This document shows, in pieces, positions 2,339-31,979 of a stretch of 59,768 nt of DNA. The DNA comes from a virus (taxonomy: Duplodnaviria > Caudoviricetes), in IMG/VR virus record IMGVR_UViG_3300020200_000031, positions 1-59,768 of that record; one strand, 5' to 3'. The position numbers were made by a program, and so were the translations under genes. The stretch's first letter is position 1. Each line of letters begins with the position of its first letter. Under the pieces are notes generated by a model. That model did not search any database, was not told where the DNA came from, and saw nothing but the letters and a program-made list of their open reading frames with translations.

Positions 2339-3358
2339 TTAATTATTCTTTTTCTTCTTTGCGTTTTCATAACGCTCGAGCATTCTTCTTCCCTTGGCCG
2401 CAAGTGCTGCCGCATCCCCGGCATTCTGTGGCACCGGTTCACCCCATGCCGCTGCTGAAAGTGCGAGCCTTGTCGGGCGACCCTTTTCGTCCTTCATTGG
2501 ACCGGATGGATTGGTGAAAAAACGCGTGAGGAATGAGCCCTTACGGCGCATCTTTTCTGGCGTGTCTGCGGCGCCCTTGACGCCCGGCTTTAAATTCGCG
2601 CCTTCTGTTTTTTTAAAATGGGCCCGACCGGCCGCGGTCAGACCACCCTTGGGGTCACGAAGTTTTTTTTTGACCGATTTGGTTTCTTCGTTAAAAAAGG
2701 CTGATTTTTGCTGGCCTTCAGGGACGCAGTTCGGCACCATTTTGCCCCTTTTACCCTTCTTCATACCCACCTGTACATACCCGTCCCAGCAGGGCGCAAC
2801 TTTCAATTCAATGTCTTCTGGCTCGCCATCCTTGAAAAGTCGGAAACGACGCCTCTTTTTTCTCCTTCTGTTTGTCAGGGCTCGTCTTGCAAAAGCGAAT
2901 CCGACGTCAAAAAGAACCTTGAGTTCTTCTGCGGACTCTTCATCCATATTCTCTCGGTAGAGGTCGTCGAATTTTTCGTCGCTCAAATCCTCGAGCAGTA
3001 CGAGGACTTTTGTTTCATTTATTCCGAGTTCTATCCCGTGCGATTCGTATTCGTCTTCAATTTCCGCCTGTTTATAACTTGCCGGCGCACAATCCCCTTT
3101 GCATTCAGGGCAAGCCTCCATGACCATTTCGCTGCTGGCCTTGCACATGAAACCGTCGCCTTTTGAGTCGGTCATCTCTTCTTCGGGCTTGTCTGTGCCC
3201 TTTTTAGGCTTGCCATCAAAATCAACACTGTGGGCGCCGTTGCCGGCAATCATTATTTTGCTCTCTATTTCGGCTTTGTCTGAAATATCGTCTATGACAG
3301 CCATCTTGAAGCCGTATTTGCCAACAAAATTTTCTAATTCGTCACAATTCGTAGTCAT
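2339..3358 (-). CDS. Head-region protein with C-terminal DUF6321-like domain
   Basis: KGGLTAAGRAHFK...NLKPGVK...RRKGSFLTRF; also the PCWDGYVQVGMKK...VPNCVP mini-motif and a CxxCxxxC motif. Confidence 0.65.
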   Translation of the reverse strand: MTTNCDELENFVGKYGFKMAVIDDISDKAEIESKIMIAGNGAHSVDFDGKPKKGTDKPEEEMTDSKGDGFMCKASSEMVMEACPECKGDCAPASYKQAEIEDEYESHGIELGINETKVLVLLEDLSDEKFDDLYRENMDEESAEELKVLFDVGFAFARRALTNRRRKKRRRFRLFKDGEPEDIELKVAPCWDGYVQVGMKKGKRGKMVPNCVPEGQQKSAFFNEETKSVKKKLRDPKGGLTAAGRAHFKKTEGANLKPGVKGAADTPEKMRRKGSFLTRFFTNPSGPMKDEKGRPTRLALSAAAWGEPVPQNAGDAAALAAKGRRMLERYENAKKKKNN

Positions 3359-5728: not shown

Positions 5729-8293
5729 TTACTTTTCTGGAAAATTACGCTTGAACCATGCAAGATTGGAATCGCCGCCCCTGCCACCCCCAGATTGCTC
5801 AGACCATTTTTTAAATGCGGGTTCATCTATCGCGCGGAAAACACCATTCTCTATTTTTGCAATAACCCTTGGTGCGGCGCCTGGCGGAATGTCCATGTCC
5901 CAGATGTACATATCTTGAATTTCGTTTCTATTTAGATGATTTGTCAACCAACCGTACATTTGTTGACCTTTAACCCTTATCAGGTCGACTGGCAATTGCC
6001 GTCCACCCTGAGCATTTCGAGCAGTCAAACGTTTTTCGGCTTTTTCATAGGGCAAAAACGGAATGTGAACAACTTTTTTGTAATTTGGGTCGGCCGTTGT
6101 TTTGTACTCGTAAAGACGATAACCCGTGCCTTCGGTGACGATATCCATTCCTTCATCAGCGGCGGCAGCAACAGTTTTTGTCGCACTTTTTGCTGATTCC
6201 CGATGAACGGAAACTGAACCCTTTCCGCCGTCATAACCAATGATTCCCTGTTTTATGAAATCGGGGTCTATATGAGCGGCTTCTGAGTTGGGTGGCATGA
6301 GCCCATTTTTGACTAGATGGTCAATAAGCGTTGATTTGCCAACGGCGCCCGGGCCAACGACATGATAATGAACCCGCGTGCCAGGTTTTTTATTTCTTCG
6401 GTCTTGGCGCACTCTTTCAAGAATAATTTGTCCCATTCTTTTTGCCCCAATGCCAACGAAGTTTTTAGTGTCTGGCATTGTTGATGACCTTAGTCCCCTA
6501 TTTTCTGGGCCATATTTTGAATAGAAGTTCAAAATGCGCTGCCATTCCACGTCGGTAAGGTCGCCATCCCTCTTGAATTTTTGGGCCAACGCATATGGAA
6601 CATTGAAACTTGGCTTCGAATTGGCCCAGTCGATGAAATGAATTTTTTGTCTTTCCGGCCACGTAGATGGGCTTGATTTGGCCATTTCGGACAGACTCAT
6701 GGAATTAGTGCTTGAGCGCAGCCCTCTAGCCGCATTCGTGTCGATATCGGGGGTCTTCGGGTCGACCGGGGTCGCCTTGTTTCCCGTGAACAGAAGATTT
6801 ATTTCTTCGTCCGACAAACCAAGTTTTTTTAATTTTGCAATGGAATTTTCAACCGTTTCTTTTCTCCGGTCTGCTTGACGAATAGGGTTTCCGCGTTCAT
6901 CGCGCTGAATCATTCCATCACCACGCTTCATTGGGTTTGCTGTTGAAGAAGACAAACCGCGAGAATCCAAATCCTGCTCGTTTCTTTCCAACGCCCTTCT
7001 CAGCAATTGACTTGCTCTTTGCTTGCTCACCTTCAATTCATCAGCAATATCTTGAATCTTTCCACCATTGGCTCGTATTTCCAAAATTCTGTTATCACGG
7101 TCATCAAGTTTGCCAACATTTCGGGTCTTGGGTTGGCTCGGCGTTTTGTCGGCAATCAACCACGCATCTCCAAAAATCAGCATGGGGTGAAGATTGAGTG
7201 CCGACATCACCAGTCTGTCGGCATCGAACGCATCGATTGATGCGTCTGGTTTGTGCATTGCGTCGATGACCTCCCTTGTCACCCCAAGAACTAATGCCTG
7301 TTCGTCTCGATTTTTGCGTAACCGCAATCTGTCAAAATTTAAAATTTCTTGCGCTTTTAATACCCCGCCCTTTTTAATTTTATTTGGGGTGAACCAGTTA
7401 TTTCTAACCGGAGATGCCCATCGTGGCTTACTCGTATCAATGCTGTCTGTCTCGCTGGCGAGACCACTTCTAATAGGGGCAACCATTTCTCTCCAGGTTC
7501 CATCAAAAATAATTCCGTCATTATCCATGTCGCGCCGTTTTTTGGGGTCTAAAACACCTTCGATTTTTTGTAGCGACCGACGCAATCCTCGGCTGGATAC
7601 ATTTGGTGTTACTGCGTGACCAATCGCCCTTCCGAGACCCTTGGTTCCATAAATTTCTTCAAAAAGAGATTTTTTACGCAATTTATTCTTGGAGGAATTT
7701 TGGAGTTCCCTACGAATAATTGTCCTAATCATTCGATTTTGAGATTCTCGTTGATTTCTTCTTCCCAAAAAAGTTGTTCCTGCAAGCCTGGCGTAATCGG
7801 TGTTATTGGTGCAGGGGAGCCATACTGTTCTTCCAGTCGCTGACGGCATTCTTCTAACGCCAATACACCCGAGCATCCTGCTACGTTTTCGTGCCGACTC
7901 TATGTCTACGAAAACATCCGGGTCATTATCCCGTGGCGATATGCCTGGGATATACGATTTGACGCCACCAGAATATATTGTTGAATTTATTGGTGCCGAA
8001 ACTATCCCGCCGCCCTCAAGCGTAGCAAAGCCGCCGAGCGGTTTGGTTTCTCTTAACTTTTCCCAGCCCTTTTTTTTATTTTTGCCCTTAGCGCGTCTTT
8101 TCAGATATCTTTCATTCATTTCTTGATATGCAGATTTTTTATCGGGTTCTGCGGCATTCGAAAGTCTTTCCAATTCCTCATGGGTTTCACACGGCATCCA
8201 TTTTCCGTCCATTTTGTGCGCACCGGAGCAGCCGACCCATTGTGCAACACGCAAAGCAAAAATCTTTGAATTTGTTTCAGGTTTTGCCGTCAT
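5729..8293 (-). CDS. Multidomain head-associated protein: Cys/His motifs, DxDxDG module, two HTH domains, C-terminal zeta-toxin-like P-loop kinase
   Basis: Walker A GPGAVGKST, HIDPDFIK, VHRES and DIVTEGT (zeta/PezT-like); IQDIADELKVSKQRASQLL (sigma region 4-like HTH); four RGLxSxT-type motifs. Confidence 0.75.
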   Translation of the reverse strand: MTAKPETNSKIFALRVAQWVGCSGAHKMDGKWMPCETHEELERLSNAAEPDKKSAYQEMNERYLKRRAKGKNKKKGWEKLRETKPLGGFATLEGGGIVSAPINSTIYSGGVKSYIPGISPRDNDPDVFVDIESARKRSRMLGCIGVRRMPSATGRTVWLPCTNNTDYARLAGTTFLGRRNQRESQNRMIRTIIRRELQNSSKNKLRKKSLFEEIYGTKGLGRAIGHAVTPNVSSRGLRRSLQKIEGVLDPKKRRDMDNDGIIFDGTWREMVAPIRSGLASETDSIDTSKPRWASPVRNNWFTPNKIKKGGVLKAQEILNFDRLRLRKNRDEQALVLGVTREVIDAMHKPDASIDAFDADRLVMSALNLHPMLIFGDAWLIADKTPSQPKTRNVGKLDDRDNRILEIRANGGKIQDIADELKVSKQRASQLLRRALERNEQDLDSRGLSSSTANPMKRGDGMIQRDERGNPIRQADRRKETVENSIAKLKKLGLSDEEINLLFTGNKATPVDPKTPDIDTNAARGLRSSTNSMSLSEMAKSSPSTWPERQKIHFIDWANSKPSFNVPYALAQKFKRDGDLTDVEWQRILNFYSKYGPENRGLRSSTMPDTKNFVGIGAKRMGQIILERVRQDRRNKKPGTRVHYHVVGPGAVGKSTLIDHLVKNGLMPPNSEAAHIDPDFIKQGIIGYDGGKGSVSVHRESAKSATKTVAAAADEGMDIVTEGTGYRLYEYKTTADPNYKKVVHIPFLPYEKAEKRLTARNAQGGRQLPVDLIRVKGQQMYGWLTNHLNRNEIQDMYIWDMDIPPGAAPRVIAKIENGVFRAIDEPAFKKWSEQSGGGRGGDSNLAWFKRNFPEK

Positions 8294-8301
8294 CGGCGAA
8301 C

Positions 8302-8700
8302 CTACTTTTTGTTGAATGCTTCGAGGGCGACCGCTTTAAGGGCAGCCAAACGTCGAGGGTAACGTTTTTGCATTAACCGCGCTTCTTCAAGGTCGTCTTT
8401 AAACTCCTCGTAAACACCCTTGAAGCATTTTCCCAAAAGGTCGCCACATTCATAAATATCACGGTCTCCCTTTTCTATGTTTATCCCGGAAACGGCGTCG
8501 CCCATTGCCTGCTGTAATTCCATTCCCCTTGTTGAAAGAGAAGGGAAACCCCAATCGGGATTCACACCATCAAAATCCATTGAGTCTCTACCATCGTCGA
8601 TTTCCGAAAACGGAGGATAGTTCATCAAAGCATTTAGTTCTCTTTCCTGCTGTTGCATTTTTCCTGCTGCTTTGTAGTAAGCATCATCTTGCATGGCCAT
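8302..8700 (-). CDS. Hypothetical protein (132 aa), possible partner/immunity protein of the upstream kinase protein
   Basis: GAGG RBS, starts 8 nt after the stop of 8709..14021; acidic. Confidence 0.6.
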   Translation of the reverse strand: MAMQDDAYYKAAGKMQQQERELNALMNYPPFSEIDDGRDSMDFDGVNPDWGFPSLSTRGMELQQAMGDAVSGINIEKGDRDIYECGDLLGKCFKGVYEEFKDDLEEARLMQKRYPRRLAALKAVALEAFNKK

Positions 8701-8708
8701 TTTTTACC

Positions 8709-11700
8709 TCACCCGTATCGTTTAATAATGTCATCGCGGCGCGCTATAAGTGTATCTGCAAGGATTTTCGCACGAGCCGGGTCGCTGACTATTGATTGAA
8801 CTGTTTTTCTGATGTCGTCATCGGTAATAGTTCCAAGTTTCTGAGTCTGCTGTTTTAACAGATTTCGGTCCATGTTTGAAAAGTCTACATTTCCGCCCCT
8901 TTTCTGAAGCGAAGTCATTTCCGTTACAGAGTTTCCAAAAGCCACTGTGCCCCCACTCCCCTTTTTGGTGCCTTGTGCCCTGTAATCCAGCGAACCGCCA
9001 ACATCGAGACGAACAGCCCTGCCGTTATTGTCGATTTTAATGTTGTCGTTTAATGGTGCATCCCAGTTTGCCAACCATGCGTCTATTACGAAACCTTTTT
9101 GGGCCTCGGCTTTATCGCCCGCTATGTGTGGCATTCTTGTTTGAATCATTCTGGAAAGCATCACTGGTTCGCCATTGTTTGTTCCCATGTTCAGGTCGGC
9201 TGCGGGAATGCCGGCAAGGTCGTATAGTTTTCCGGCCAACACTTCAGTTTCCATGCGCTCTTGTGCTTGCGCAATGGTTTCTGAAGGTTTTTTTAGTTTG
9301 GTGTAGTACTTAGTGCCATTTGGGTCAGTCAACAAAATTGCTGGATTGGAGCCAGTGTTTTGTGGCGTGCCCTTCGACCAAGCGTCTGTATTAATGGCGC
9401 TTTTGGAAATACTTGGCGCCGTTTGGGGTGTCGGCGCGGGCGTCGTTGGCGTTGAATCGTCATCAGGGTCGGGTCTCCGTGTTGATGGTCTTCGTTTGCG
9501 TCCAACACTACGCCCTGGGGTGATAGTGGCATCTGTGCGACCTCGGTCTTCACGATTCGCCCATAGATGCCATACGGCACCAATTCGCGAGCCATCGGGT
9601 GCTTTGGCTAATCTCTCGGCCTCATCTCTTGTTACTGGAATGTGGTACACGGCAACTCCAGTTCGGTTATGAATTAAGAATGGGTTTCCGACCCCCTTGT
9701 TGGAATTGGTATCAAAGCCATCAATACCAATAATTGGTGCGAAATAACCCTCTTCTTTTTGCTTGGTAAATCTATGCAAATAATCGATTGCCCCAAGAAT
9801 TCGTTTTCTTTCATTTGATGTATCGCCGGGAATCTTGTCAAGTTCTTCGAGTCTTTCAATCAATTGGCTTACAATTTGACCGCTTCTTGACGTTTCATTG
9901 GCCAAATTTGGAATTGCTTTTCTGAACTCCACCGCCAATTCGCCCGCAGATGTTGCTGCGGCACTGTCTCTTCCGCCCATGGTTTTAGTTACGTTGACAA
10001 GTTGTGTCGTTAAATTAGCCATCTTGTCGCGTTCACGTATGAGGTCATTTCGAGTTACAATATCTGCGCTTGGCGGTATCAGTACAAGCATGGAGTGTTT
10101 GTCGGTAGGTTTGCCGCCATATTGCGTCCAATGGCCGGGATAAGCAAAATATTCACCCACACCAAAGGCCCTCATCCCCTGTCCTGGGATAAATCGTGCC
10201 GCCTCATTCGTCAAGAATTGCTCGACGAAGCCTTCGCTCTCGATTTGTTGGTGCCCGGTACCCCTTATCACGGGTTGCCAACCGGCAGCAATCAACCTGC
10301 GCACCTCATCTTCGTTGACCAATGTGGGAAGGTCGGAATAACCGTTGTTCTCCCAAAGGTCGGCCAACAGTTGGTCGAATGCCTTTTCTCTTGCCTCGTC
10401 ACTAAGGGTTTTTGTGTCCTTGAGTTCACCGTCCAACTTTGCCAAAACATCGACAAAACTTGGTTTGATTTTTATTTTGCCAGTATTGTCAATAGACACC
10501 GTTGAGGTCTCGGCCTTAATTCGACCTATATCTGCGGCCAATTCATCTGCGTCTCGTGTACGACGGAACTTAGACAACATTTTTCGCTTCATTGCACGAG
10601 TACGAAGGCGCGTTTGTTTTATTTTAAGAGCAGGGTCTTCGATGGTGAGGATACGACCCTTTCTAAACCCACCCTTTCGACGCTCCGCTCTTTGTCGCGC
10701 CCTGGCCGCACGTGCTGGGTTAACTCGTAGTAATCTTTTTCCGAGGGCCTGTTTTTTCTTTTTACCGGTTTCTTCAGGATTCAATTCACCCACGCTCGCG
10801 GCCCTTTCAAGACCGCCTGCTTGTTTGAAAATTGATGAATCTTGCCCAGGGTTTGAAAACTTTTTAGTTGCTGGGGTGCCTACTGCTTTGGAGATTTTTT
10901 TTCTTGTGCCGGTATGGAAATGTTCCAACAAAGAAAAATCATCATTTTCTTCCATGTTTAACATCGTGACTAAATCTTCAAGAAATCTTTGAATCCTACC
11001 CGACTCACTCAATTGTGGTCGCCCCAGTTTGTCGAGTACGTACTCGCCGGTTTCCGCATTTATTTGAAATTTGTTGACTTTGCCTGAAACGATGTTTTCG
11101 TCGAGCATTTGCATCATCTCTCGAGCGTCGTTTTTTGTTAGTGGGTCATCAAACGGCCTGACCTTCTGTCGTCCGCCGGTTCCCCAGGCGCGTTGTTTCA
11201 CGGCCCGCAAAGATTCTTTATCAAGACCCTCTTCGGTTGCTTTTTGCCACCATTTTTTGTATGGTCCTGTTTTAAGGTATTTGACTATTTCGGCTTTTTC
11301 GGCAGCAATTGCTTCTTTGGTTTTTGTTCGGTCTTCTTCGGACATGGATTCCCAAAGGACCCCATCACCGTCTTGTTTTTTTACACCGCCGTTTTTCAGA
11401 ATCTGACTGAAATATATATTTCTCCTGGGTTTGGGTTTTGATTTTTCTACTTCAGTTCTTGTTTCTGGAAGCGTTGTGGTTGACCCCAAGCCTCTTGGTC
11501 GACTGGCGCGTTCGGTTGTGGCTGTCGCAATTCGACTCGATGTTGGTTGGGTTACAGGGCGACGTCGTGGCGATGATGTAGATGAACTCAAACTACGCTG
11601 TTTTAGTGCCTCGTTTCTAAGGTCCATTATTGCGATGCGGTCATCTTCGTCATCAATGCGTGTTATATCGAGGTTGTCAACCATGTTCAAAATCGAATTA

Positions 11701-14021
11701 ATTTCGTCTTTTGATAATTTCTCGCCTCGTTTGAGTTTTGCAATGGCGTTAACTGCGTCATCGAGGTCACTGCCCAAATCTGGGTCATCTGTTTCGGACC
11801 TCAAGCCTCGCCCTGCTTTTTCCTCAGGTTTTGTGCGTTTGATGGTCTTTTGTGCTCTTTCCAATATTTTTTTAAATTCTTCACGTTGTTTTTTGTTTTC
11901 TTCAAGAATTTGAAGCGACTCGGAACCTATTGGCTTATTTGGGTCTGTAGATGAAGACAGGCCACGTCGTTTTTTGCCAGCCAGGGCCCGCCTCAGGAAA
12001 GAGGGGGTCGGTTTTTGTTTAGGCGAGGAAACATCCTCAATAAGTCTCTGTATTCGCCTGTCATTGTAAAAGAGGTCGTTGTTGTCCGCAACGTCGTTCA
12101 ATGATTCCAAAAGCGACGCCCGCTCTTTGTCCGAAAGGGGTTTATCGGCAGCGAATTTTTCCAGATTTCTCGCAAACTCAGGTTCGGCGGTGCCGCGCAT
12201 AGCGTCTCGCAATTCCTTGATGATGTTTTGGCGGTCATCATCGCCGGCAGATGAAGACATTCGTTTGACATCGTCAATTAACTCCGCCAACCTGTCATCG
12301 TTTTGGAACGTTTCGTTGTTCTCGGCCATGTCCTGAAGGGTTTCAAGTAGTTCAGATTGTTCGTCGCCAGAAACCGACATACCTTTGGCGATTTTTCGTA
12401 GGGCTCTTTGAAGTTCCGGTTCTTGCGCACCCTCGGCCATTTGGGTGATGTCATCAATCAGGCCACCGAATCGCGTGGCCCGTCCTCGACCGTCTAGGTA
12501 TTTTTGTCTATCTTTTGATGTTTCGCCCAATTTACCCAGAGCAGACGCAACGGTTGCCTCCAATGCGTTCACCCTGCTTGATTTGTTTCCGTCGGGGTCA
12601 AATGCGGCAATTACCTTTACGGGGTTGACATCCCGACCGGAGGCGACTCCGTTTATGTATTCGGATAAAGCATTGAGTACGTCGGACGGATACCTTTCGG
12701 TCTCGTCTTTCGCCAAATCGGAGGCCACGCCATCAACCAAGTTCTTTATCAACTTCTGTCTATTTTTGGGGTCTGCTTTCTTGAAATCATCCTGTTGCGA
12801 TAGTGCCGACAATTTTGCCGTCACCGTTGAAACCAGGTTGCCGGAATTCGACCAATCGGCGCCATCTGCTTCCCACGCCTTCCTAAGTCCACTGTCCCAG
12901 TCAGCACCGCCCGCGTTGACGGAATCCATGAAGCCAATAGCGTCTACAATGCTTTGCCTGGTGCTTGACTCCAGTCCGCGTGGTTTCTTTTTGTCAACAA
13001 ATGAGGTTCTTGAGCGGTTGGCATAATCTCGTTTTTCTAATTCCTCGATTTCTTTCTCGTCTCCGGGCGTTCTGATTCCATAGCCACCGCCACGATTTGG
13101 AAGATTCATTCCCCCATCACGACGGGCCGCGAATCTTGTTGGGTCTGGCATTTCCCGCCACGTGCCATCGAAAATCATTCCGTCGCCATCAACGTCTCTT
13201 CTTAAACGTGGGTCTAGAACACCAGAAATTACCCGTGTTGCCCTTGACAAAGTATGTCGGCGTCTTCCACCGGGCAATCCAGGCCTGCCCGACGGCACAA
13301 GTGCTCGACCGGTTCTTCCTATTGCGTAGCCCAAGCGACTCTTAACAAAAAAATCCACAATTTCTTTGGTGTTTTTACCAATTTCATCGCGTTTAACTAA
13401 CGGGAGATTTTGTTTTACAAGAATATCTTTATTGATTATTTTTACAATTTCTCCACCAAATTTACGTTCATGACCTTTTGACATTTTTTGCTGTATTGCA
13501 TAACGTTCCGCCATTTGAGATGCGCGATTGGGCTTAGGATTAAATTGTTTGGTTTCATAATTAAACGCTAATTCATTTGTCCGAACCCTGAATCCAATTT
13601 CGCTCCTTATTGCCGATTGCCGAAAATGTTTGGCCTTGTAAGAAATAGCAGTTTTTTTCTTGTTTTGTGATGAAGGAATTTTTTTATTGGTAACCGTAGG
13701 ATATTTGGAGATATTGGGATACCTGATTGATTTCACCAAAAGTTGACAATTGTTCTGTGTTGCCAAAGAACCATTGACGGCCGCAATGTCTAGGCTTCCA
13801 ATAATTATTTTCTTCATCATTCCGTCAGACAAATTTTTAAATTCACCTACAGAAATTCCGACCGGCAAATCAGACAGTCCCAGATTATTTTGATTGGCCC
13901 ATTCTGACCATTCCACACCTTTATCGCTCCAACCGTAAAATTGATTGGAATCATCAGACCTAACAACTATGCCAAAATTGATGCCTCGATGGACATTTTT
14001 AAGTATTGCGTATTTTTTCAT
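8709..14021 (-). CDS. 1770-aa polyvalent protein with ART-like domain and C-terminal HipA/PI3-4K-like kinase domain
   Basis: Kinase motifs GSNP, KYYTK, EVLAGKLY, DAWLANWD, RLDVGGSL-YRAQG; ART-like VIRG...GQGMRAFGVGEYFA; DxDxDG module; five RGLxS-type motifs. Confidence 0.75.
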   Translation of the reverse strand: MKKYAILKNVHRGINFGIVVRSDDSNQFYGWSDKGVEWSEWANQNNLGLSDLPVGISVGEFKNLSDGMMKKIIIGSLDIAAVNGSLATQNNCQLLVKSIRYPNISKYPTVTNKKIPSSQNKKKTAISYKAKHFRQSAIRSEIGFRVRTNELAFNYETKQFNPKPNRASQMAERYAIQQKMSKGHERKFGGEIVKIINKDILVKQNLPLVKRDEIGKNTKEIVDFFVKSRLGYAIGRTGRALVPSGRPGLPGGRRRHTLSRATRVISGVLDPRLRRDVDGDGMIFDGTWREMPDPTRFAARRDGGMNLPNRGGGYGIRTPGDEKEIEELEKRDYANRSRTSFVDKKKPRGLESSTRQSIVDAIGFMDSVNAGGADWDSGLRKAWEADGADWSNSGNLVSTVTAKLSALSQQDDFKKADPKNRQKLIKNLVDGVASDLAKDETERYPSDVLNALSEYINGVASGRDVNPVKVIAAFDPDGNKSSRVNALEATVASALGKLGETSKDRQKYLDGRGRATRFGGLIDDITQMAEGAQEPELQRALRKIAKGMSVSGDEQSELLETLQDMAENNETFQNDDRLAELIDDVKRMSSSAGDDDRQNIIKELRDAMRGTAEPEFARNLEKFAADKPLSDKERASLLESLNDVADNNDLFYNDRRIQRLIEDVSSPKQKPTPSFLRRALAGKKRRGLSSSTDPNKPIGSESLQILEENKKQREEFKKILERAQKTIKRTKPEEKAGRGLRSETDDPDLGSDLDDAVNAIAKLKRGEKLSKDEINSILNMVDNLDITRIDDEDDRIAIMDLRNEALKQRSLSSSTSSPRRRPVTQPTSSRIATATTERASRPRGLGSTTTLPETRTEVEKSKPKPRRNIYFSQILKNGGVKKQDGDGVLWESMSEEDRTKTKEAIAAEKAEIVKYLKTGPYKKWWQKATEEGLDKESLRAVKQRAWGTGGRQKVRPFDDPLTKNDAREMMQMLDENIVSGKVNKFQINAETGEYVLDKLGRPQLSESGRIQRFLEDLVTMLNMEENDDFSLLEHFHTGTRKKISKAVGTPATKKFSNPGQDSSIFKQAGGLERAASVGELNPEETGKKKKQALGKRLLRVNPARAARARQRAERRKGGFRKGRILTIEDPALKIKQTRLRTRAMKRKMLSKFRRTRDADELAADIGRIKAETSTVSIDNTGKIKIKPSFVDVLAKLDGELKDTKTLSDEAREKAFDQLLADLWENNGYSDLPTLVNEDEVRRLIAAGWQPVIRGTGHQQIESEGFVEQFLTNEAARFIPGQGMRAFGVGEYFAYPGHWTQYGGKPTDKHSMLVLIPPSADIVTRNDLIRERDKMANLTTQLVNVTKTMGGRDSAAATSAGELAVEFRKAIPNLANETSRSGQIVSQLIERLEELDKIPGDTSNERKRILGAIDYLHRFTKQKEEGYFAPIIGIDGFDTNSNKGVGNPFLIHNRTGVAVYHIPVTRDEAERLAKAPDGSRIGAVWHLWANREDRGRTDATITPGRSVGRKRRPSTRRPDPDDDSTPTTPAPTPQTAPSISKSAINTDAWSKGTPQNTGSNPAILLTDPNGTKYYTKLKKPSETIAQAQERMETEVLAGKLYDLAGIPAADLNMGTNNGEPVMLSRMIQTRMPHIAGDKAEAQKGFVIDAWLANWDAPLNDNIKIDNNGRAVRLDVGGSLDYRAQGTKKGSGGTVAFGNSVTEMTSLQKRGGNVDFSNMDRNLLKQQTQKLGTITDDDIRKTVQSIVSDPARAKILADTLIARRDDIIKRYG

Positions 14022-14023
14022 TA

Positions 14024-16087
14024 TTAACCGCTAACTACTTTGCTGATTGCTTCATTGCTCGCAATGAGTTGTTGTAATCTATTTTCATAGAGTTTTCCGA
14101 GAATATTTAAATGGATTTTTTCTCCAGAGGACAATCTGCTATCGTTGTAAAGTTTTGTTTTAAAATTATTAAAACTGAATTCCCTGGCGCGTTTAATAAG
14201 TGTAGCAATAAATTGCAAAGTCAGGCCGCGTTGGGTAGCGCGAAGTTTCTCGAAATACTGTTTGTAAAGTTGTAATTGAGAAACAGTAAGAAGTTTTTCG
14301 ATGTTCTCTTCGGTTCTTTGTGTAATTAAAATTTTTGACAACTCGATTAAGCCAGCGCCGTCATTTGACGTCGGAACAATTTTAATTTTGTTATTAATGT
14401 TCGCAATGTCGACAGAGCCAGGATTTCTATTTTGAACATCTGTTAACAGGTCGGAAACAAAAAGTCTTGCGGTTTCCTGCCAGGGTGCGTTGCGAAATGT
14501 CAGATTATCGTCAATTTTTCCACCACGTGAAACTATTGTTGAATCTTCTGTTAGGTATCGACGAGAGTCTCCCGCGCCAACAAACAACACATTTGGGGAT
14601 TTTAAACCTAGGTGTTGCTGTATTTCGGAAACAAATCTTTGGGAAAGGGCTTCAAATTTTTTGGGGTTTGATTTTTCAATATATTTGTCGCCATTTGGTA
14701 GGGAAACCATAGTTCGTGAGTCGGAAATTTTTTCGCGTTTTATGTTGTTTGCCTTTGCCATAGCCTGCTGCAAAATCTCGGGCGAAATTTCAACAAGAGA
14801 ACCGCCGCGTGTGATATGTGCAATGGCACTTGTCAGCGTCGTGATGTCGTCACCCAACGGAGCCGAGGATGGGCTAATTGGCGCTTTTTCCGTTGCTACT
14901 TCTTCAACGGCTTTTGGCACTGGTTTAACTTTTCGTTTACTAAAGGCCATTGTCGCCCATTTTTGGCGGCCGTCTTTTACAATTTCATTTGGATTTTTAA
15001 TCCCGACAAATTTTTCGGAATACTTTATTCCCTCGCCGGTTTCCATCGCAACCATTTTTAGACGAGCCGCAGGGTCTGAGGTGTTACTAGATTCGATTGC
15101 CGTGTTAACGGTTCGACCCAGTTTTCTTCTTTCCCCAATCGTAAGTGGACGAACTTTTTCCAGAGTTAGTTCATGGCCACCGGGGAGAACATACTTAAGA
15201 CGAATGATTCCGGTATTTGATAGTAAACCAAGTTCGTCTTTACCAATAAGGTCAGGGCTAAGCACGCTCATTATGTATGTTGCGCCCTCCATGTCCCTGC
15301 TGTCGGGAATTGTTCTTAAGACTGAGGCGGGTACGACCGGCTCCAAGACAAACCCGTCTTTACGAACCATGCGAGCCACTGATTGGTCAGTCGCACTAAG
15401 TGGCTTGACTAGTTTTTGAATTTCTGCCATTGCTTTTGCCGGATTGGCGAGCGAAACCCGCGGAATCTGTGGCGCCCTTGAAACGTCTGCCGAGAGCGGC
15501 ATTTGGCCCGCCCCAAGAGTCGTGCTGGCAATATTTCCCGATGGCATTTCTCTTGCGATTGTTCGACGAATCAATGAAATTGCGGCACCCAATGGCCCGG
15601 CAATAATGAACAACTTTTGTCCGCACGTTGAAAACTTATTATCCGTAAAACGTCCACCGTATTGAAAGCCCTCTGGGCATCGCGAGACACCGTCACCCGC
15701 GCCACGTCTCATGCCCGGAACGCCCGGAATGCCCGGAGTCAGCAACCTGGTCACCGATGAGCGGATTGGGCTTCGCACTATGCTCAGGTTTCCCGGAGTA
15801 AGAGTTGACCCGACCGCCTGAACTGCCTGAAGTACTGGATTGTTGCTACTTACAAGGCCGATTCGTTTAAATTCAAATTCGCGGTTTCGACCAGACCTTT
15901 TGATAAGGGCTTTATAGGAAATAAGTTGTGGGCTTGTCGCCCCAAAATTTTTCATAATCTGGGTTGGACTTTGGCCGTTGTTTATGAAGACGGTTCGAAT
16001 TTTTTTGATTTCCGTCGATGGGCAGCAAAGGCTCTTGTTTGTTAGTTGCTTGACTTCCGAAATTATAAATTTGTTTTTCATGGTCAT
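14024..16087 (-). CDS. ~687-aa head-associated protein with RCPxG motif and degenerate HipA/PI3K-like C-terminal domain
   Basis: ATG at 16087 overlaps the upstream TGA (ATGA). RCPEGFQYGGRFTD motif; C-terminal KYIEK...QHLGLKSP...LFVSDLLTDVQNRNPGS. Confidence 0.6.
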   Translation of the reverse strand: MTMKNKFIISEVKQLTNKSLCCPSTEIKKIRTVFINNGQSPTQIMKNFGATSPQLISYKALIKRSGRNREFEFKRIGLVSSNNPVLQAVQAVGSTLTPGNLSIVRSPIRSSVTRLLTPGIPGVPGMRRGAGDGVSRCPEGFQYGGRFTDNKFSTCGQKLFIIAGPLGAAISLIRRTIAREMPSGNIASTTLGAGQMPLSADVSRAPQIPRVSLANPAKAMAEIQKLVKPLSATDQSVARMVRKDGFVLEPVVPASVLRTIPDSRDMEGATYIMSVLSPDLIGKDELGLLSNTGIIRLKYVLPGGHELTLEKVRPLTIGERRKLGRTVNTAIESSNTSDPAARLKMVAMETGEGIKYSEKFVGIKNPNEIVKDGRQKWATMAFSKRKVKPVPKAVEEVATEKAPISPSSAPLGDDITTLTSAIAHITRGGSLVEISPEILQQAMAKANNIKREKISDSRTMVSLPNGDKYIEKSNPKKFEALSQRFVSEIQQHLGLKSPNVLFVGAGDSRRYLTEDSTIVSRGGKIDDNLTFRNAPWQETARLFVSDLLTDVQNRNPGSVDIANINNKIKIVPTSNDGAGLIELSKILITQRTEENIEKLLTVSQLQLYKQYFEKLRATQRGLTLQFIATLIKRAREFSFNNFKTKLYNDSRLSSGEKIHLNILGKLYENRLQQLIASNEAISKVVSG

Positions 16088-16743
16088 CCGCAACACTTTA
16101 CGCCAACGTAGGGGGTCACGACCGGCAACCCGAGATTGTCGGTACCCTCAATTTCCCAGTTGTTGTTGTCGTTCAAATACGAAACAAAATCTTTTTCAGC
16201 GTCGATAAATTCCTGCAAAACCTTCACGGCGTGTGTCATGTCGCCGGCGGTAACAATATTTAATTCTTCGCTTTTCTCGCGCCAAGAATCTTCCGAGAAA
16301 AATTCGTCCTTGTTTTGGGCGAATTCATCGCTTTTGCCAAGAGGTGTACCTTTCCCGACAGCCCGGGCAAGCCTTCCTGGCGCCCGAATGGCCCTGCTCA
16401 GTCTTTTGCCAAATTCAGCATTGGACCAATTTCTTTTCTTGAGTTTCCCCTTGCAATTCTTCATCCCCGGATGGTGGCAGCCCTCGTTGGGCCACAATCC
16501 GGTCGTTTCGTGGTGGAGCCACGCACAGATGTTGTTGAGTGGGTACAGTTCCGGATGGTTTGCCAAGATGATTCGGCACCTACGAAAACCCCCCGGTAGC
16601 CGCATGATAGGACGCCAATATCGCAGGAGCCTCTCGAGGTTGCCTCGTCTCGGCCCGTAACCGCGAAGGATGTCTCCCGTAATTCTTTCTTGCGGCAAAT
16701 CAAAAATGACATCTTGCGGCGCCTTGAAATAAAACTCATCCAT
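16084..16743 (-). CDS. Head-region protein with Cys/His motif (PGGFRRC...CAWLHHETTGLWP)
   Basis: ATG at 16743 overlaps the upstream stop; motif resembles one seen in actinophage head-region proteins. Confidence 0.6.
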   Translation of the reverse strand: MDEFYFKAPQDVIFDLPQERITGDILRGYGPRRGNLERLLRYWRPIMRLPGGFRRCRIILANHPELYPLNNICAWLHHETTGLWPNEGCHHPGMKNCKGKLKKRNWSNAEFGKRLSRAIRAPGRLARAVGKGTPLGKSDEFAQNKDEFFSEDSWREKSEELNIVTAGDMTHAVKVLQEFIDAEKDFVSYLNDNNNWEIEGTDNLGLPVVTPYVGVKCCG

Positions 16744-17200
16744 CTTTGGATTTTTTCTTTCTTTTTCCCTTTTTAAATTTTTGTCCAGGGGCTTCAATCC
16801 AATTTGCAATCATTTTTTGAGACCATTGACCGGTATTTTTTGCAAGAACGAAATCCATCGCCCTGTTTTCGAATTCCAAAGACTTTGCCTGTCTTTGTAA
16901 AACATCCTTGACAATTATCGCACCGGTCAAAAGTTCTTCACGAATCGGCAAGGATTTACTTACAAAAACAGAATACCAGTGAATATTTGTTTTAGACTGA
17001 TGACCGTTCCATAGGTAATCATGGAATTTAGTATTAAGAATTTTTTGCATTTGGGGATGGCTGTCAACATATTCCCAAAAACCTTCCACACTTATATCTC
17101 CCACCTTGTTTTTAACAACACAATCGGCATCAGGACAAATTGAATCGACAATAAAATATATTTTATTACTATCAGATTTTCCCACAAGTATTGACTTCAT
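16736..17200 (-). CDS. Hypothetical protein (154 aa)
   Basis: ATGA overlap with the stop of the 3209-aa gene (translational coupling). Confidence 0.65.
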   Translation of the reverse strand: MKSILVGKSDSNKIYFIVDSICPDADCVVKNKVGDISVEGFWEYVDSHPQMQKILNTKFHDYLWNGHQSKTNIHWYSVFVSKSLPIREELLTGAIIVKDVLQRQAKSLEFENRAMDFVLAKNTGQWSQKMIANWIEAPGQKFKKGKRKKKSKDG

Positions 17201-20200
17201 GCCCGTACAAACTCTTTGCGCTCATCTTGGTTTTGACTAATTCGTCGCGCGCGTCTACGGCCAATTTTATCAGATTTCTTATTTTTGGCCAATAATGGCA
17301 TTATTGCAAAAGCCAAAACAATTGGGTCTAAATCTTCTAGATTTATAGAATTCTTCACATTGGCAGATTTGATATTTAGCCCAAGTTTTTCAATTAAGGG
17401 TAAAAGAGTTTCTCGGGAAATTTCTGCCGGTAATTGCCAGTTATGTGGCATAACTTGCTCTATAGGCTTTCCGCTTACGTCATGTGTCCGGCTCATTCTG
17501 GCTCCCTCTGTCCTAATATCTGGCGCCCTGGAAAATAAAAACCAAGAAGCGAATGCCTCGGCCAATCCTTCTGTCGCTTTTGAGGCGGCATAACGAGTGG
17601 CCGCTATACGCTTCTCTATTTCCTCCGCCCGCAATGCTGAATGAAATATTTCGTCAGGGTCTCCACCCAGGTTTATCGTTTGACCCTTGCTGATTAAGCG
17701 TTTTAATAAATGTCCCATTAGCGACGGCATCCTTATTTTTGATGCGCTTTTATCTCTTACGCTGAAATCGAGTAAATGGCCGAATTCATGAATCATTGAA
17801 CCGTAGGCAATCCTTCCTGCGATTTGGCCAGTCAATTCTTCTAATTTATTTGGGTCATCATATGAGACATCATATTTTGGCAATCCCAATTTGCCAAACG
17901 CTACCGGTGTTGAACCCCCGGGGGCCAAAATTTGAACTTCCCCCCGCGCCCCAAAAGTCCCTCGACGGGGTTGATAGTGTTGACCCCAGTTCAGGGAAAC
18001 AATTTGTCTTGCGGCATCTTTAATTTCGGCGGCATTTATATCAATACGCGTTTTGTGTTTGTTGCCTTCTTTAAATCTTTGCGCTCTAAAAAATTTTACT
18101 CGAGGACCAAAGGTGCCAAAAACGCTGGTTGGTACAAAAATTTCACTGCGCCCTTCAATCCCACCATCTGTAATATTTACTGAAAAATTGTTGTCTTTTA
18201 GAAGTAGTTTCATTCCCGGTACATTCGAAAGTAGGTCATCTAGGGCCTGCACGGCTGCATAGCCCGCGAAATTGGTTGCCAACGGTCTTCCGTTTTTGTC
18301 TTTTTCTTTAAATAATGATTTAGACATCTCCACATCTATTCCATAGGTTTTTTTGAAATATTTTCGGACCTGTTTTGGCGAATAGCCAAATTTTTTCTTA
18401 AGATTTTCTGGCGCTTCAACCCTGGGAATGCCTAATTCGTCTCGTCCGTGTGGCAACTCAAGGGGTCCTTGGTCTAATTTTTCCGCGCTGCTTCTATCGC
18501 CAGGTTTGAAATTTTCCCCAAACCACGAATCTGTTGACGTGCTGCTTGCCAATCCCCTTGTACCGCTTGCCGATTTTTGCAATGATTTTTTTGGCTTTAG
18601 GTCATCAATTTCTTTGTTTGAAGCAACACTCATATTGTTGTCAGACAAAAGTTTTCTTATTGTTTCTGCCCCCGCCCAACCGATGACATCAACAAGTTCA
18701 TGCTCTTCCGATAAACCGCTGATTTTCATAGAATTCGGATACATGCCACGACTTTCCCAGTCAAGTCCTTCGTGATTCAAAAATGTAACTTTGGGTCGCT
18801 CTTCAGGACTTTCTGCAATCAGTTCCCGAATTCTTTGCCGTTCGCTTAGGCGTCCGATTAGACGTGCCCTGGCAGAAATTTCGTCGCGTAACTCTTTAAT
18901 CAATTTTTCGGAATATTGATTGTCCTTATTTTCAATAATTTTTTGCAATAGGCTAAGTTCTGATTTTGATAAATATTTTCCAAAAAAATCTTCTATGATT
19001 TTCTCATCAACTTTTCTGGTGTCGCGCTGACCGGGGTGTATCGCATCACCATCATTTTTCATATGTCGCCTTTGAAACTCAGGTTCAATACGGATTTCTT
19101 CTACGTCATTCATATCAAATCCGCCCGCCACTATTGCTTCGATGTAGAAGCGATAATCCTTATCAATGCTTGTGAGGTGTGCAAAATCGTTTGAAACACT
19201 TGCTTCTAAAAGATTTATAAATCTTTGTTGTTCAGAATCGGGAATATGCGCGTGCGTGGTTCGAAACCGGGCTAGGTATCTATTTAATATTGCCGCCTCG
19301 AGCAATTCGTCATCGGTTGCCGAACCATCGAGGCTGACGGGTGTTCGCATGCCACTAAAAGAATCACCAAAAGTCACCAACGAACGTTGTGCAGTTTCCG
19401 GTTTTAAGATTATTTCAGAGTGCCCATATTGCCTTGGAAGCGAATCGACAAGTTTCCCTTCAAAAGAATTTGGGTCGTCGATTCTCTTGTCGCCAACGCT
19501 GTCTTCGTCGCCAATAGCAATTATTTCGAGCAAATTTGGGACACTCTCTTCGATTTCTTTGATTTTTTCTGACTGTTGTTTCGCGCGGTTTTTTAGGTGT
19601 CTTTCATTAAATTTCTGTTCGTCAGGATGTTTCAAAAATCCGTGCGCGGGTCTAATCGTATTGCGCGCCTTTGAAGGGATACCCAAAAGTAATTCAATGT
19701 CTTTTCTGTCAGCGGATTCAGATGATGCCGTACTTTGTCCTCCGAACTGTCCTAATTGTCGGGGGTCATGTGTTGTCTTCCATTTTTTATCTTTTATAAA
19801 GCGGTATAATGGTGATTCGTCCGGTGAATCTCCTATCCCTTCATCTGAGATTCCGCGAATTCTAAATATTGGACGTTTATCTAATCCGTCTATATATTTT
19901 CTTACCGAATTAGCCGCAATCTTTTTAATTTCTTCTGGAGAATTGTTTCGAAGAAGTTCTAAAACTTCTGGGCTCACAGGCCTGCCGTAATTCCATTCCT
20001 CTACAATTTCGCCCGTTTTTGCTTTATCGATTGTCTTATTAATTACTTCATTGAATCGAACCTTCGCTTCTTCGTGACTCTCATATCTGGCATCATCCGG
20101 AGTAACAACACCGAAAGGGTTGTTTCTTTTTTCGACCCAATCTTTGCGTTTTTTTTGCTTCTCAGCCAATGCTTCCCCACTTGGTTTCCCAAATTTAATT

Positions 20201-28359: not shown

Positions 28360-31300
28360 TCAAACATCGTCAACCGGTTTTGTAGTTTTGTCGACAAAGG
28401 TAGACATTGCTGCTGACGCAATTTTTTCAAGTAATTCAGCAAATATTTCTGCCCTACTTCCAACTCCGCCACCCTTCCCTGCGGTTTTTTGTCTATCAAT
28501 TATTTCCATTACGGCGTCAAGAATTTGGTCAGCCTCGTCTGCTGAAATTTTGATTGAGCCCACATTTGTTCTTTTTGAGTTCGGCCGAAATGCGGCGGCT
28601 TCGTATTTTTTAATTTTTTCCTGAAGTATTGTCAAGCCTTTTTGAGTCAATTTTGAATCGGCTTCCCGAATCTCTTTGCCCAAGGAATCATCTATCTTTT
28701 TCCACCAAGTCGATTCATTAATAATTTCAGTTCTTGGCCGCTTTGTGGGGGTGGTTGAAGATGAAAGACCCCTACCGCCTTGTTTTTTGAATCTGTTTGT
28801 TTTTTGGAAACGACGGGCCTTGTTTATTGAATTATTAATCGTGGTGCTGCTAGGAAGGCCGCGGTCATCATAATCATCGTCGTCGCCGCCAAAGCGACTA
28901 TCAAGATTGTCTTCATCACGACCAACATCAAATTCATCAGGGTCGTCATCGTCTTGTTCAAGACGGCCCGACCTATCAAGTCGCCTACCCGACGCTCCGG
29001 CGCCGCTAATCATGTCTTCTTCCCCCAGGTCTTCTTGAGTATCGCTGCGCCGTTCTCCACCAAAATCGTCAAGAAGTTCTCGAATCTGGAACAAATAGTT
29101 ATGCACACCCTCTTCTGCCTTGTTAAATTTGCCTTTTCTGACGTCGTCATTTTTTAGTTTTGCAATTTCACGCAAACCCTCATCCAATTCATCAAGGGCT
29201 TCTTTGACCGACTCTGGGTTAGGGCGGTTGTTGTCGCCGCCATCGTCCGGAAAAGCCAACGCCATAACCCTGTCTATAAGGTCGATTGAGGCGGTCTCAA
29301 AATCGCTTCCCACCTGTTCTTTATCTTTGTTGGCCCTGCGTTGTTTGAAGAATTCCTCAAATGTGCTCCTGTACGCCGTCAACTTTTCTTCTAGTTCGCT
29401 ATTCCCCGATTTTCGAGGGCTTGTTTTGGGCGCGGGTTTTTTCTCTTCGGGCTTCGGGGTGTCCGGTTTAGCCGGTCTTTGATTTGACACCTGCGGTCTT
29501 GGGCGTCTTTCGCTCTCTATCTCGCGAAGACCTTTTCCCGATTCTCTTCTGAGACTTTCGTCTAACAAATAGTCATCAAATCTTTCGAGGAAGGCCTGCC
29601 ATTTTACGGCCCTATTTCGTTTCTTTAGGGCTTCATGATTTTTTACGAACCAGGCATATTGAGCATCGAAATCCATTTTGTCAAAATCTTCTGGGAATAT
29701 TCCTATATCTATGTAGGGTTTAAGTAAATTCTGACCTTTGTGGATGTAACTAATTTTTTTTCTACTGCTTTGCATTGGGTCCGGTTCAATGTGGAATGGT
29801 GGATTTTCCAGATTCTTGGGATAACCTGTGGATTTTTCCTTTTCGGCAGCCTTTTGCCCGGCACGTGTGTCTACGCCCCTCTTAATTCTTCGTTGGCCAA
29901 CAATTTCCTTGTCGCCAAGTTTTGTTTTGGGGCCAATTCGTATTTTTTTAGTAGGCGAAGCGGGTGCTTTTGATTTGTTTTTGCGTTCGAACTGGCCTGT
30001 TTTTACCAATTCATCCAAAATTCCAAATGCTGTGTGGCCTTTTTCATTATTTGCTTTTAAGTCAGCCACGCCGCCAAGTTCTTTAAATTCTTCACTAATT
30101 TGAGGCCATATTTCTTTGAATTTTGCCAACATTTCTGTATCTATTTTTGGCAAAAGAGTAGCATCATCAAAACGTGATGCCTCTTTTATTTCTTTAGCAA
30201 ATTGTTCAACAATTGTTGGTGGCGATGTAGAATTTTTAAGAAAATTATCAAACATTCTTACTAATCTGTTCTTCGATTTTCTAGGAATAAAAAATAGCAC
30301 AACTTCTCGGGGTGGTTTTTGTTCTGCCCATGCTTTCCACCACGTTTTGCCCCATTTCTCTTTAGGAAATGACTCTTTTTTAGGCTTATATCTATAAATT
30401 GGGTGGGGGAGGGGGGGGTTGTGGGTGGGAGATTTTGGAACTTCTGTATCTGAACTTAAACCTCGGTCGAAAACCCTTGTTGGGGCTGGCATTTCTCGCC
30501 ACGTCCCATCAAAAATTATGCCATCGTTGTCAACATCGCGGCGTTTTCGGGGGTCTAGTTCCCCTGTAATTTTAGCGAGCGCGGCCCTGCCGCGCCGAAC
30601 TTTTCCCCCACCACCCGGCACCAGCCTGCGACCAATTCGCCCTATTAAATTTTTGGTTGCAGTACCAATTGCTTCATGAGCATCATCATTAAGTGGGGAC
30701 ACCAATAAAATTCCGTCCTCGGTTACAACGGTTTCAATTCGGTGAAAATCAAAAAGAGGGTCAAGTGCTTGTTTTGTTTCAAAAGCGCTTTCGGGAGCAC
30801 ATGGAATAAGCCATGCATCTTCTTCGGTTTTTACACTAATCATATTTTGTAGAGAATTGGTGATTTCTAAAAGTTGCTGCGTTATTTCTTTTTGTTCCTG
30901 CTCCACAAGTTTTTTATTAAAAATGATGTCTAGGTCTATTTCCGATTTTGAAGAATCAAAAAACCCACTTTGGGTGTTTGAGTCACCATATTTAACGGGG
31001 ATAAGTGGCGTGCTGGGTATATACGGTTTTCTTTGAACGTTTGGAAAATTTGGAATTCGCTGCCCGGGTCTCATGCCTGGATTTGTGGTTGGCATTCCGG
31101 GCATTGGTCTCTCAATTACAACTGGGGAAGTAACCTGCTCAGGCTTGCCAAACATCCATTGATTTCCGTCAAAATGATAGGCAAGCCTAAAAATTCCTTT
31201 TCCAGGTTTTACAAAAAGAACAAAACTTTCCGTCGCTTTCATAACCTTGATTGGTCCACCGGTTCGAGAAGTTAGTTCTTGCTGGAGAGCCAAGATACGG

Positions 31301-31920: not shown

Positions 31921-31943
31921 CCGCATTCCTTTGCGACTTAGCA

Positions 31944-31979
31944 ATGATAAACGAATTTAGTCTCTATCCATTGAAGGTA
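31944..31979 (-). promoter_or_regulatory. Putative promoter TACCTTCA-N22-TATCAT
   Basis: Intergenic between portal and protease; next to a 9-bp inverted repeat atttctgta / tacagaaat (31979-32012). Confidence 0.35.

Follow-up and report, generated by a model that had tools for sequence, protein, structure and literature searches.

Apart from T4, P1, and the phiKZ group, little is known about how proteins are chosen for packing beside the DNA in HK97-type heads. Two short peptides, the capsid-targeting sequence (CTS) of T4 and the N-terminal signal of P1 DarB, are described as directing foreign proteins into capsids (PMC9024508), and the gp21 protease cleaves the CTS from the T4 internal proteins IPIII and Alt (Mullaney and Black 1996, cited through PMC9024508 and PMC10052503). 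In SPN3US, according to PMC10052503, head and ejection proteins carry N-terminal propeptides of 111-254 residues that are removed by the prohead protease, which has a C-terminal propeptide of its own, and HK97 proheads are stated to hold ~60 protease copies (PMC12749128). Here, we analyze a 59.8 kb viral record from IMG/VR (IMGVR_UViG_3300020200_000031, taken at its full length of 59,768 nucleotides and referred to below as the window), in which an HK97-type prohead protease and two large proteins encoded between the portal and capsid genes share a peptide module of ~65 amino acids (aa), with a recurrent R-G-L-x-S-S-T motif downstream of it in the same proteins. We tentatively read this module as a putative encapsidation tag that is carried on N-terminal leaders and cut from its cargo by the head protease.

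A six-frame search of the window for D.D.DG returned exactly three matches, all in frame in the long minus-strand open reading frames (ORFs) A, C, and I, where the first Asp of the pattern falls at aa 255, 276, and 470, respectively. The three genes and their copies of the module are as follows.

28360-31944, minus strand: gene I, 1194 aa, HK97-type prohead protease (Peptidase_S78 at aa 28-172) with a long extension
30454-30657, minus strand: module copy in I, aa 430-497, with its 30-aa core at 30475-30564
8709-14021, minus strand: gene C, 1770 aa, giant protein without a family match, with a leader and the module followed by four RGLxS sites
13113-13316, minus strand: module copy in C, aa 236-303, with its 30-aa core at 13134-13223
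5729-8293, minus strand: gene A, 854 aa, with DUF3721 (aa 16-38), the module, a sigma-70 region-4-like helix-turn-helix (HTH, aa 395-437), and a Zeta-toxin-like/AAA_33 kinase (aa 629-778)
7448-7651, minus strand: module copy in A, aa 215-282, with its 30-aa core at 7469-7558

These cores, on the minus strand but at matching coordinates, are the near-identical blocks that an earlier note on this DNA had reported in three otherwise unrelated head proteins, and both parts of that statement hold: in pairwise BLAST the module is matched between A and I at 56% over 72 aa (E 2.5e-15), between C and I at 60% over 63 aa (E 3.9e-15), and between A and C at E 9.6e-12, and beyond the module, the same comparisons of A, C, and I gave nothing better than E 0.01. 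The extent of 25 aa given at that time needs revision, as the similarity spans ~65 aa, running from (T)K-G-hydrophobic-G-R-x-I-G-R through a basic RR..RR segment to I.G.LDPxxRRDxDxDGxIFDGTWREMPxPxR; the Lys and the basic G(R/Y)xIG stretch had been correctly placed ahead of the block, and belong to the K-G-x-G-R-x-I-G-R of the module itself. With the A copy as the query against the window's own record, the other two copies are recovered at E 7e-18 and 4e-14, and a profile of 37 module copies, which itself contains the three window copies, scores these at 89-98 bits against 5.7 bits for the next-best six-frame stretch. On these scores, we reject a chance or low-complexity match. The alignment of the 37 copies, drawn from three or four non-homologous protein families, has 10 invariant columns and 9 more that are nearly so. 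Between the 30-aa cores, protein identity is 22-25/30 (73-83%) compared to a DNA identity of 61-67/90 (68-74%), and the same codon is used at only 9-11 of the 20-23 conserved degenerate core residues, which together indicate purifying selection on the peptide and not recent duplication; recent DNA duplication or gene conversion is accordingly rejected on the differing codon use. No model of Pfam, PHROG, or NCBIfam covers the module. The sequence family is new, although the pairing of a tag with a cut site is, as an idea, already known from T4, P1, and SPN3US.

The second recurrent element came out on top of an unbiased 5-mer enrichment over the large head-block ORFs, in which RGL.S is present in 14 strict copies against 0.27 expected; the RGLxS motif pointed out previously is therefore real and far above chance. 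The copies read R-G-L-x-S-S-T, with three in A, four in C, three in I, and four in the giant protein G of the same gene block, while among the window proteins scanned RGLxS is absent from the portal and capsid proteins and from B, D, E, F, and H. Their positions are the following.

30451-30465, minus strand: RGLSS of I, first site, aa 494, 8 aa after the REM of the module
28849-28863, minus strand: RGLPS of I, aa 1028
28759-28773, minus strand: RGLSS of I, aa 1058
12966-12980, minus strand: RGLES of C, first site, aa 348, 56 aa after REM
11952-11966, minus strand: RGLSS of C, aa 686
11796-11810, minus strand: RGLRS of C, aa 738
11481-11495, minus strand: RGLGS of C, aa 843
7454-7471, minus strand: variant RSGLAS of A, aa 275-280, directly after the module
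6947-6961, minus strand: RGLSS of A, first strict site, aa 445
6713-6727, minus strand: RGLRS of A, aa 523
6485-6499, minus strand: RGLRS of A, aa 599
17197-26826, minus strand: gene G, 3209 aa, giant protein without the module
25993-26007, 23014-23028, 21373-21387, and 18544-18558, minus strand: RGLAS of G, four sites at aa 274, 1267, 1814, and 2757

In the window, each of the ten strict sites in A, C, and I is found past the module (a chance of 0.03 under uniform placement), and among 21 module-bearing ORFs from 11 loci, 20 have no site N-terminal of the module, the exception being the I ortholog in locus L035. The order of the two elements is thus the one required by the proposal, already made in the earlier note, that the tag is parted from its cargo at RGLxS, and we infer from sequence that RGLxS may be a cleavage site. 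The same note had the first RGLxS within ~10 aa of the block in two cases and ~50 aa in the third, which is correct for I (8 aa) and C (56 aa) and incorrect for A, in which the nearby copy is the variant RSGLAS. A site of the pattern of their lineage stands 4-13 aa past the module in five of the seven A-type orthologs examined (L033, L029, L025, L037, and L036, and not L019 and L042). Those I-type and A-type proteins that have a nearby site carry it 4-20 aa past the tag; one A-type ortholog has no site at all. In the same proteins of relatives (L019, L025, L029, L033, and L037), the motif is replaced by the lineage variants GLASST, LRSSG, RGARS, and RLxSGR, and the module hardly changes. Motif drift by lineage is, we infer, what would be expected of a protease site co-evolving with its protease.

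The layout of leader, tag, punctuation sites, and lineage-variable modules, the presence of the same tag on the protease, and the agreement of both with the logic of T4, P1, and SPN3US are the reasons why we favor the encapsidation tag, to which we would give slightly less than an even chance of being correct. During procapsid assembly, the tag would bind a conserved internal component, candidates for which are the inner face or scaffold domain of the capsid protein, the portal, and the S78-clan protease assembly. Through this binding, protease I would enter the shell along with the precursors of the cargo proteins A and C, and would then cut at the R-G-L-x-S-S-T sites. These cuts would free the downstream enzyme and cargo modules from their tagged N-terminal leaders, and would leave the tag at the C-terminal end of the protease fragment.

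The nearest relative of this arrangement in terms of protein families is HK97, with which the window shares the S78 protease family, the order portal-protease-capsid, and a capsid protein with an N-terminal scaffold domain. The HK97 protease carries a targeting region at its C-terminal end, and Duda, Oh, and Hendrix reportedly described, in 2013, an encapsidation domain of the HK97 gp4 prohead protease. The proposed cut at aa 494 of I would leave the tag in the corresponding place, at the C-terminal end of the protease fragment. HK97 gp4, however, is a protein of 225 aa that is not fused to cargo, and its translated C-terminus is without the DxDxDG..FDGT motif. Like the T4 CTS, as far as the sources used here portray it, the module is a short peptide found on several proteins presumed to be loaded into the prohead, in some of them next to a putative protease site at which tag and cargo would be parted after assembly. 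The T4 CTS comprises ~10 residues at the extreme N-terminus, whereas the module here is ~65 aa long and starts at aa 215, 236, and 430, after a leader, and its core occurs elsewhere at N-terminal, internal, or C-terminal positions. The protease is moreover of the S78 (HK97) family here and of the gp21 type in T4. The likeness to the CTS is one of layout. The long leaders, putatively removed at a recurrent motif, resemble those of SPN3US and other phiKZ-type phages, in which many cargo proteins are ejected with the DNA, but the protease family and the cleavage motif are different there, and no shared conserved tag is described in the part of PMC10052503 drawn on here. Finally, P1 DarB provides the example of a giant multienzyme antidefense protein that a short signal, itself able to carry a foreign reporter, brings into an HK97-fold capsid; this signal consists of the first 30 residues and, in the portion of PMC9024508 used here, has neither DxDxDG nor a link to a protease.

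The module is widespread among relatives of the window phage. An IMG/VR pattern scan gave 178 matching stretches, of which 49 were confirmed, in 42 distinct viral loci. Relatives keep the order portal-I-H-G-F-E-D-C-B-A-major capsid protein (MCP), and their orthologs of I, C, and A carry the module at aa ~450-500, ~275-300, and ~250-270, respectively, with three to four carriers per genome. The fourth carrier, present in one sublineage, consists of an F-like N-terminus of 150 aa, the module, and then ~1070 aa. F, free-standing in the window, has a homolog in L041 (2763-6575) and L042 (2265-6080) that serves as N-terminal leader to a ~1270-aa protein, an arrangement that by its appearance is a gene fusion or fission at the tag. 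The orthologs of I have the same fused form (1036-1261 aa), and the part from aa 1 to ~495, from the protease through the tag, is conserved in all of them at 57-72% identity (alignment A6), while in the distant lineages L014, L017, L010, and L011, I can no longer be aligned beyond the tag. The most conserved protein of the block is the capsid protein, with 87-92% identity in close relatives (66% in L042) compared to 45-64% for I; its family is a very large environmental one, with 2267 matches at E ≤ 1e-10 among the candidates scored. A tblastn search with the 67-aa module against 50,697 GenBank phage records gave no match at E ≤ 1, and megablast with 7.7 kb of the block gave no match either. 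Both the module and the order of the genes are thus maintained throughout a large clade of uncultured myoviruses.

Outside this clade, it is the core that recurs. A profile of the three window copies, run against 1.84 billion representative proteins, gave 45 matches at E ≤ 1e-3, in which a Pfam scan found Peptidase_S78 (6), the A-type architecture (4), Phage_portal (4), Phage_Mu_F (2), ART-PolyVal (3), and no family (16), with GNAT, InPase, NUDIX, Hint, 2H, and kinase as further domains. Two of these 45, P0035 (with PKD repeats) and P0042, are without a motif match and are probably false positives. The core is present two to four times in 11 of the 45, with each copy 23-51 aa past a recognized domain, and a scan with an alignment of twelve such copies detected 71 viral loci. 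At 33 of these, a 620-920-aa protein has the core at its extreme C-terminus, in its last ~30 residues with ~10 residues after the core, and the gene follows those for a Mu-type portal (30/33) and MuF (32/33) and precedes that for an S78_2 protease (25/33), with a lambda-E-type capsid gene further on. In L049, polyvalent proteins with several core copies are encoded upstream of the scaffold and capsid genes, and in L110, a 1934-aa polyvalent protein adjoining the portal gene has the core at its N-terminus. Beside the DGDGDG core, the polyvalent proteins have other motifs at their joints, for example AKSKSANTxGNPWHxDExGxFTS, KFNxNHDELGRFA, and KHGxHDQxxHGxWA (L049 1-13696; L052 8060-10075; L059 and L101).

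The genomes of 185,579 prokaryote species yielded 20 pattern matches and only 3 confirmed loci, all on metagenome-assembled contigs, and all 39 matches from a word-indexed search of 5.8 billion proteins were metagenomic. The core is thus virus-specific and almost absent from cellular genomes, and among the contexts examined it is mostly found in head modules; the earlier note had regarded an occurrence mainly in non-head proteins as speaking against its proposal, and this is not the distribution observed. The groups that share the core differ in their capsid and portal families, with Phage_capsid and Phage_portal in the window and Phage_cap_E and Portal_Mu in L052, and all three groups examined have an S78-clan protease (S78 in the window clade, S78_2 in L052 and L049). 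A bolder proposal is that the core, (R/K)DxDxDGx(I/V)(F/Y)DGTxx(E/Q)xPxP, is a position-independent, metal-dependent, dockerin-like address tag that loads proteins into the HK97-fold procapsids of phages with unrelated capsids and portals via one conserved receptor, most likely the S78-clan protease assembly, and that could be moved to foreign cargo. We consider this version rather doubtful.

A number of observations weigh against the encapsidation tag as we have framed it. First, the core stands two to four times between domains in portal- or MuF-fused polyvalent proteins, where targeting would be redundant. Second, it occurs on ~90-aa two-helix membrane proteins with a C-terminal core and no recognizable head block (L046, L056, and L072; their gene context rests on L046 and L072), and in L081, where the capsid protein of the record is 67% identical to that of the window, on a 913-aa carrier close to replication genes. 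Third, the spacing of tag and site is loose: the first site lies at most 20 aa past the module in 9 of the 21 carriers and can lie 43-429 aa past it in C-type proteins. In addition, the site patterns of the lineages were taken from the very proteins used for counting them, such that the counts are not independent tests. Fourth, the capsid protein has no RGLxS, and therefore the specificity of the protease would have to be broader than the motif if it cuts both. Fifth, the module is missing from G and D, although both are presumably packaged as well, and these two instead share RCPxG-x5-FTD-x3/4-SxC, as listed here.

26173-26232, minus strand: candidate second tag of G, RCPPG..FTD..SNC, aa 199-218
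14024-16096, minus strand: gene D, 690 aa, without a family match and without RGLxS
15623-15682, minus strand: candidate second tag of D, RCPEG..FTD..STC, aa 139-158

BLAST of D against G is weak when taken alone (E 0.1), and 7 G and 9 D orthologs show RCPxG..FTD..SxC without variation; in the G protein, this motif sits ~50 aa ahead of the first RGLASS site, which is the layout that the module has in A, C, and I. RCPxG..FTD..SxC may be a second kind of tag. The procapsid-targeting tag of the earlier note thus keeps in its favor that the module is virus-specific, is shared by the S78 protease and two large proteins of the portal-to-capsid interval, lies upstream of RGLxSST, and closes the only part of I that all orthologs conserve, and has against it that the core is more than a leader tag, being found between domains, at extreme N- and C-termini, and on small membrane proteins, and that G and D do without it.

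As capsid and portal families differ between the core-sharing groups and the S78-clan protease is the one head component whose family is common to all three, a role linked to the protease fits at least as well as binding to the shell, which is a further point against the reading that we favor. The core might ride into the shell on the protease or serve as a docking site for cutting. In the latter case, it would be an exosite by which the S78-clan prohead protease is drawn to the junctions of polyproteins, or which holds its substrates, with capsid loading left to other parts of the proteins. The repeated cores 23-51 aa past a Pfam domain would then mark proteins, fused to a portal or MuF, that need cuts to release their cargo, and in I-type and A-type proteins a punctuation site follows 4-20 aa past the core. 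We nevertheless judge such docking unlikely, since proteins of the window clade have one module each and 3-10 sites, the 33 loci with a terminal core leave only ~10 residues to be cut off, and the protease itself bears the module. The four sites of G, in a protein without the module, also stand against it, as they imply that the module is not needed to mark sites.

AlphaFold2 (AF2) modeled the module alone with a mean predicted local distance difference test score (pLDDT) of 58 and no secondary structure, and in a model of I aa 7-510, the module was again of low confidence (30-60), compared to 70-79 for the protease domain and two small domains (~aa 214-266 and 378-434). The absence of secondary structure together with this low confidence is the signature of a linear binding motif, and the module is thus predicted to be intrinsically disordered, like a linear docking motif that starts with a noncanonical metal loop. 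A folded autonomous domain is rejected on the same AF2 result for the isolated module. When the capsid protein (36-row alignment) and the module (37-row alignment) were modeled as a complex, two runs without controls both scored 0.00, which speaks neither for nor against binding, and an ESM Atlas feature search with the module reached a best score of 0.76, below a useful level.

Disorder and the placement between domains in polyvalent proteins would also suit a conserved structural linker without a specific partner, such as a metal-stabilized hinge that keeps domains apart. For a linker, however, conservation as high as that of the 37-copy alignment across non-homologous families would be unusual, as would the recurrence of the same core in phage groups with unrelated head proteins, and we regard this explanation as highly improbable.

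The earlier note had taken DxDxDG for a Ca2+-binding loop. In support of this, D-x-D-x-D-G-x-I fits positions 1-8 of EF-hand and dockerin loops, and D41, D43, D45, G46, and I48 are invariant or nearly so in alignment A4; against it, loop position 12 is an invariant Thr in place of Glu or Asp, AF2 shows no flanking helices, there is one loop only, and Pfam gave no significant EF-hand or dockerin match over the module. Profile searches of the PDB with alignments A4 and A3 reached E 0.23-2 at best, with subthreshold hits to the eight residues DxDGDGxI of calmodulin and dockerin loops. With Thr at position 12 and a single loop, a canonical EF-hand or dockerin is rejected. The partial resemblance would nonetheless be of use to a peptide that acts during or after ejection, as a Ca2+/Mg2+ switch or a host-factor-binding peptide on each delivered domain (for example, in unfolding and refolding or in host localization), for which the single copy per domain in polyvalent proteins and the core on small membrane proteins outside head modules could also be cited. 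If the downstream sites are cut, however, the module of the window would stay with the leaders and the protease and not with the enzyme domains, and this, together with the missing acidic ligand at position 12 and the lack of a significant family match, makes a role in ejection quite improbable in our view. Two further candidates were discarded. A calcium-dependent self-cleaving Asp-Pro module of the FrpC type is far longer than the module described here, in which LDP is kept in most window-clade copies (with NP in some) and missing in the majority of polyvalent copies. An imitation of the C-terminal tail of SSB would depend on a free Phe at the C-terminus.

The small membrane proteins themselves (L046 9818-10096, L056 770-1039, and L072 9812-10081) have two hydrophobic helices and end in PRDGDGDG.I[FY]DGT..ERK. 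The L046 gene has an endonuclease gene on one side and an M23-peptidase/endolysin-like gene on the other, and the L072 gene adjoins one for a thymidylate synthase. These proteins could be holin-like or ejection proteins.

Returning to the encapsidation tag, three further classes of proteins offer comparisons. The weaker profile matches, with their portal, MuF, GNAT, ART-PolyVal, InPase, NUDIX, and Zeta-toxin-like kinase domains among virion genes, resemble the polyvalent proteins of Iyer et al. 2017 (PMC5512222), and A joins an HTH to a Zeta-like kinase as polyvalent proteins do; by its recognized domains, A is a polyvalent-type cargo protein, with two or more effector-type domains in one polypeptide. 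That paper proposes embedded metallopeptidases as the processing enzymes, and its main text is without the motif (the strings 'calcium', 'dgdg', and 'linker' occur 0 times each). A full-text literature search for DxDxDG together with bacteriophage likewise gave nothing on phage cargo, as judged by titles and the starts of abstracts. Dockerins are also small modules that dock cargo enzymes onto a scaffold, and are related to the module by analogy only. Encapsulin cargo-loading peptides are short and disordered, direct enzymes to HK97-fold shells, and are transferable to other cargo; unlike the module, they are usually C-terminal and hydrophobic or Gly-rich, involve no protease, and belong to cellular nanocompartments.

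The window adds a defined, strongly conserved, and uncatalogued peptide. Within a clade of uncultured myoviruses that is abundant, a head protease and the proteins presumed to be its cargo have this peptide in common. If this peptide is a loading tag, it would provide a sequence rule for predicting packaged and injected proteins from metagenomes, a testable link between protease and cargo, and a candidate handle by which foreign proteins could be brought into HK97-fold shells. As a docking site for the protease, it would instead account for the cutting of polyvalent proteins in which no peptidase is embedded.

As to the wider setting, the window has a completeness estimate of ~40%, and its source is a myovirus, with tail sheath, tube, and tail chaperone genes at 44-47 kb. 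The large terminase gene is divergent from the portal gene, with which the minus-strand block begins, in the order portal-I-H-G-F-E-D-C-B-A-MCP; A, C, G, and I are thus encoded among virion genes, between the portal and major capsid genes. The remaining members of the block are listed below.

32012-34033, minus strand: portal protein, 673 aa, Phage_portal (Pfam/PHROG), first gene of the head block
26850-28229, minus strand: gene H, 459 aa, acidic protein
16736-17200, minus strand: gene F, 154 aa, small protein
16084-16809, minus strand: gene E, 241 aa, small protein
8302-8700, minus strand: gene B, 132 aa, small protein
4267-5583, minus strand: major capsid protein, 438 aa, HK97 type, Pfam Phage_capsid, with an N-terminal scaffold (delta) extension and without RGLxS

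The likely start of I is the Met at aa 7 or 9, and from there the protease is followed by a pair of small predicted domains, the module, and ~700 aa of C-terminal sequence. Its assignment as a protease is supported by Pfam (E 3e-10), PHROG 80 (E 5e-28), and TIGR01543 (E 2.9e-12, under its curated cutoff), and no domains were recognized by Pfam, PHROG, or NCBIfam in C, G, and the C-terminal part of I, except that aa 1990-2122 of G (20461-20859, minus strand) correspond to PHROG 2859, a family to which no function is assigned. This family also occurs in head-block proteins of L052 and L049, and the region is a cargo domain common to otherwise different head modules. Protein H, encoded where a scaffold gene would be expected, is strongly acidic, with long Glu/Asp runs and a weak PepSY match, and is 61-86% identical among relatives. 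It lacks punctuation sites, and the basic stretch of the module might be what it pairs with.

The capsid protein aligns with HK97 gp5 at 37% identity over 307 aa (E 2e-62), and ~130 residues precede the aligned part, from which we take the scaffold to be fused to the capsid protein, as in HK97. Within this extension, SPEFKSLxNG (aa 107-116; 5236-5265, minus strand) is conserved in the family, with F110, K111, and L113 invariant in 36 sequences. It resembles the FNK/SLGSD of HK97 near the known scaffold-capsid boundary; BLAST, however, pairs HK97 K103 with aa 139 and not with aa 111. SPEFKSLxNG may be the maturation site.

Just past the capsid gene, the window encodes an endonuclease (PHROG 452) and a PHROG 9737-like protein, at 1934-2338 and 2339-3358 on the minus strand, and the same two families flank the core-bearing small membrane protein in L046. 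On the plus strand, at 39285-41756, a ParB-like, a PAPS-reductase-like, and a second ParB-like gene follow each other in a row, in what looks like a DNA-modification cluster.

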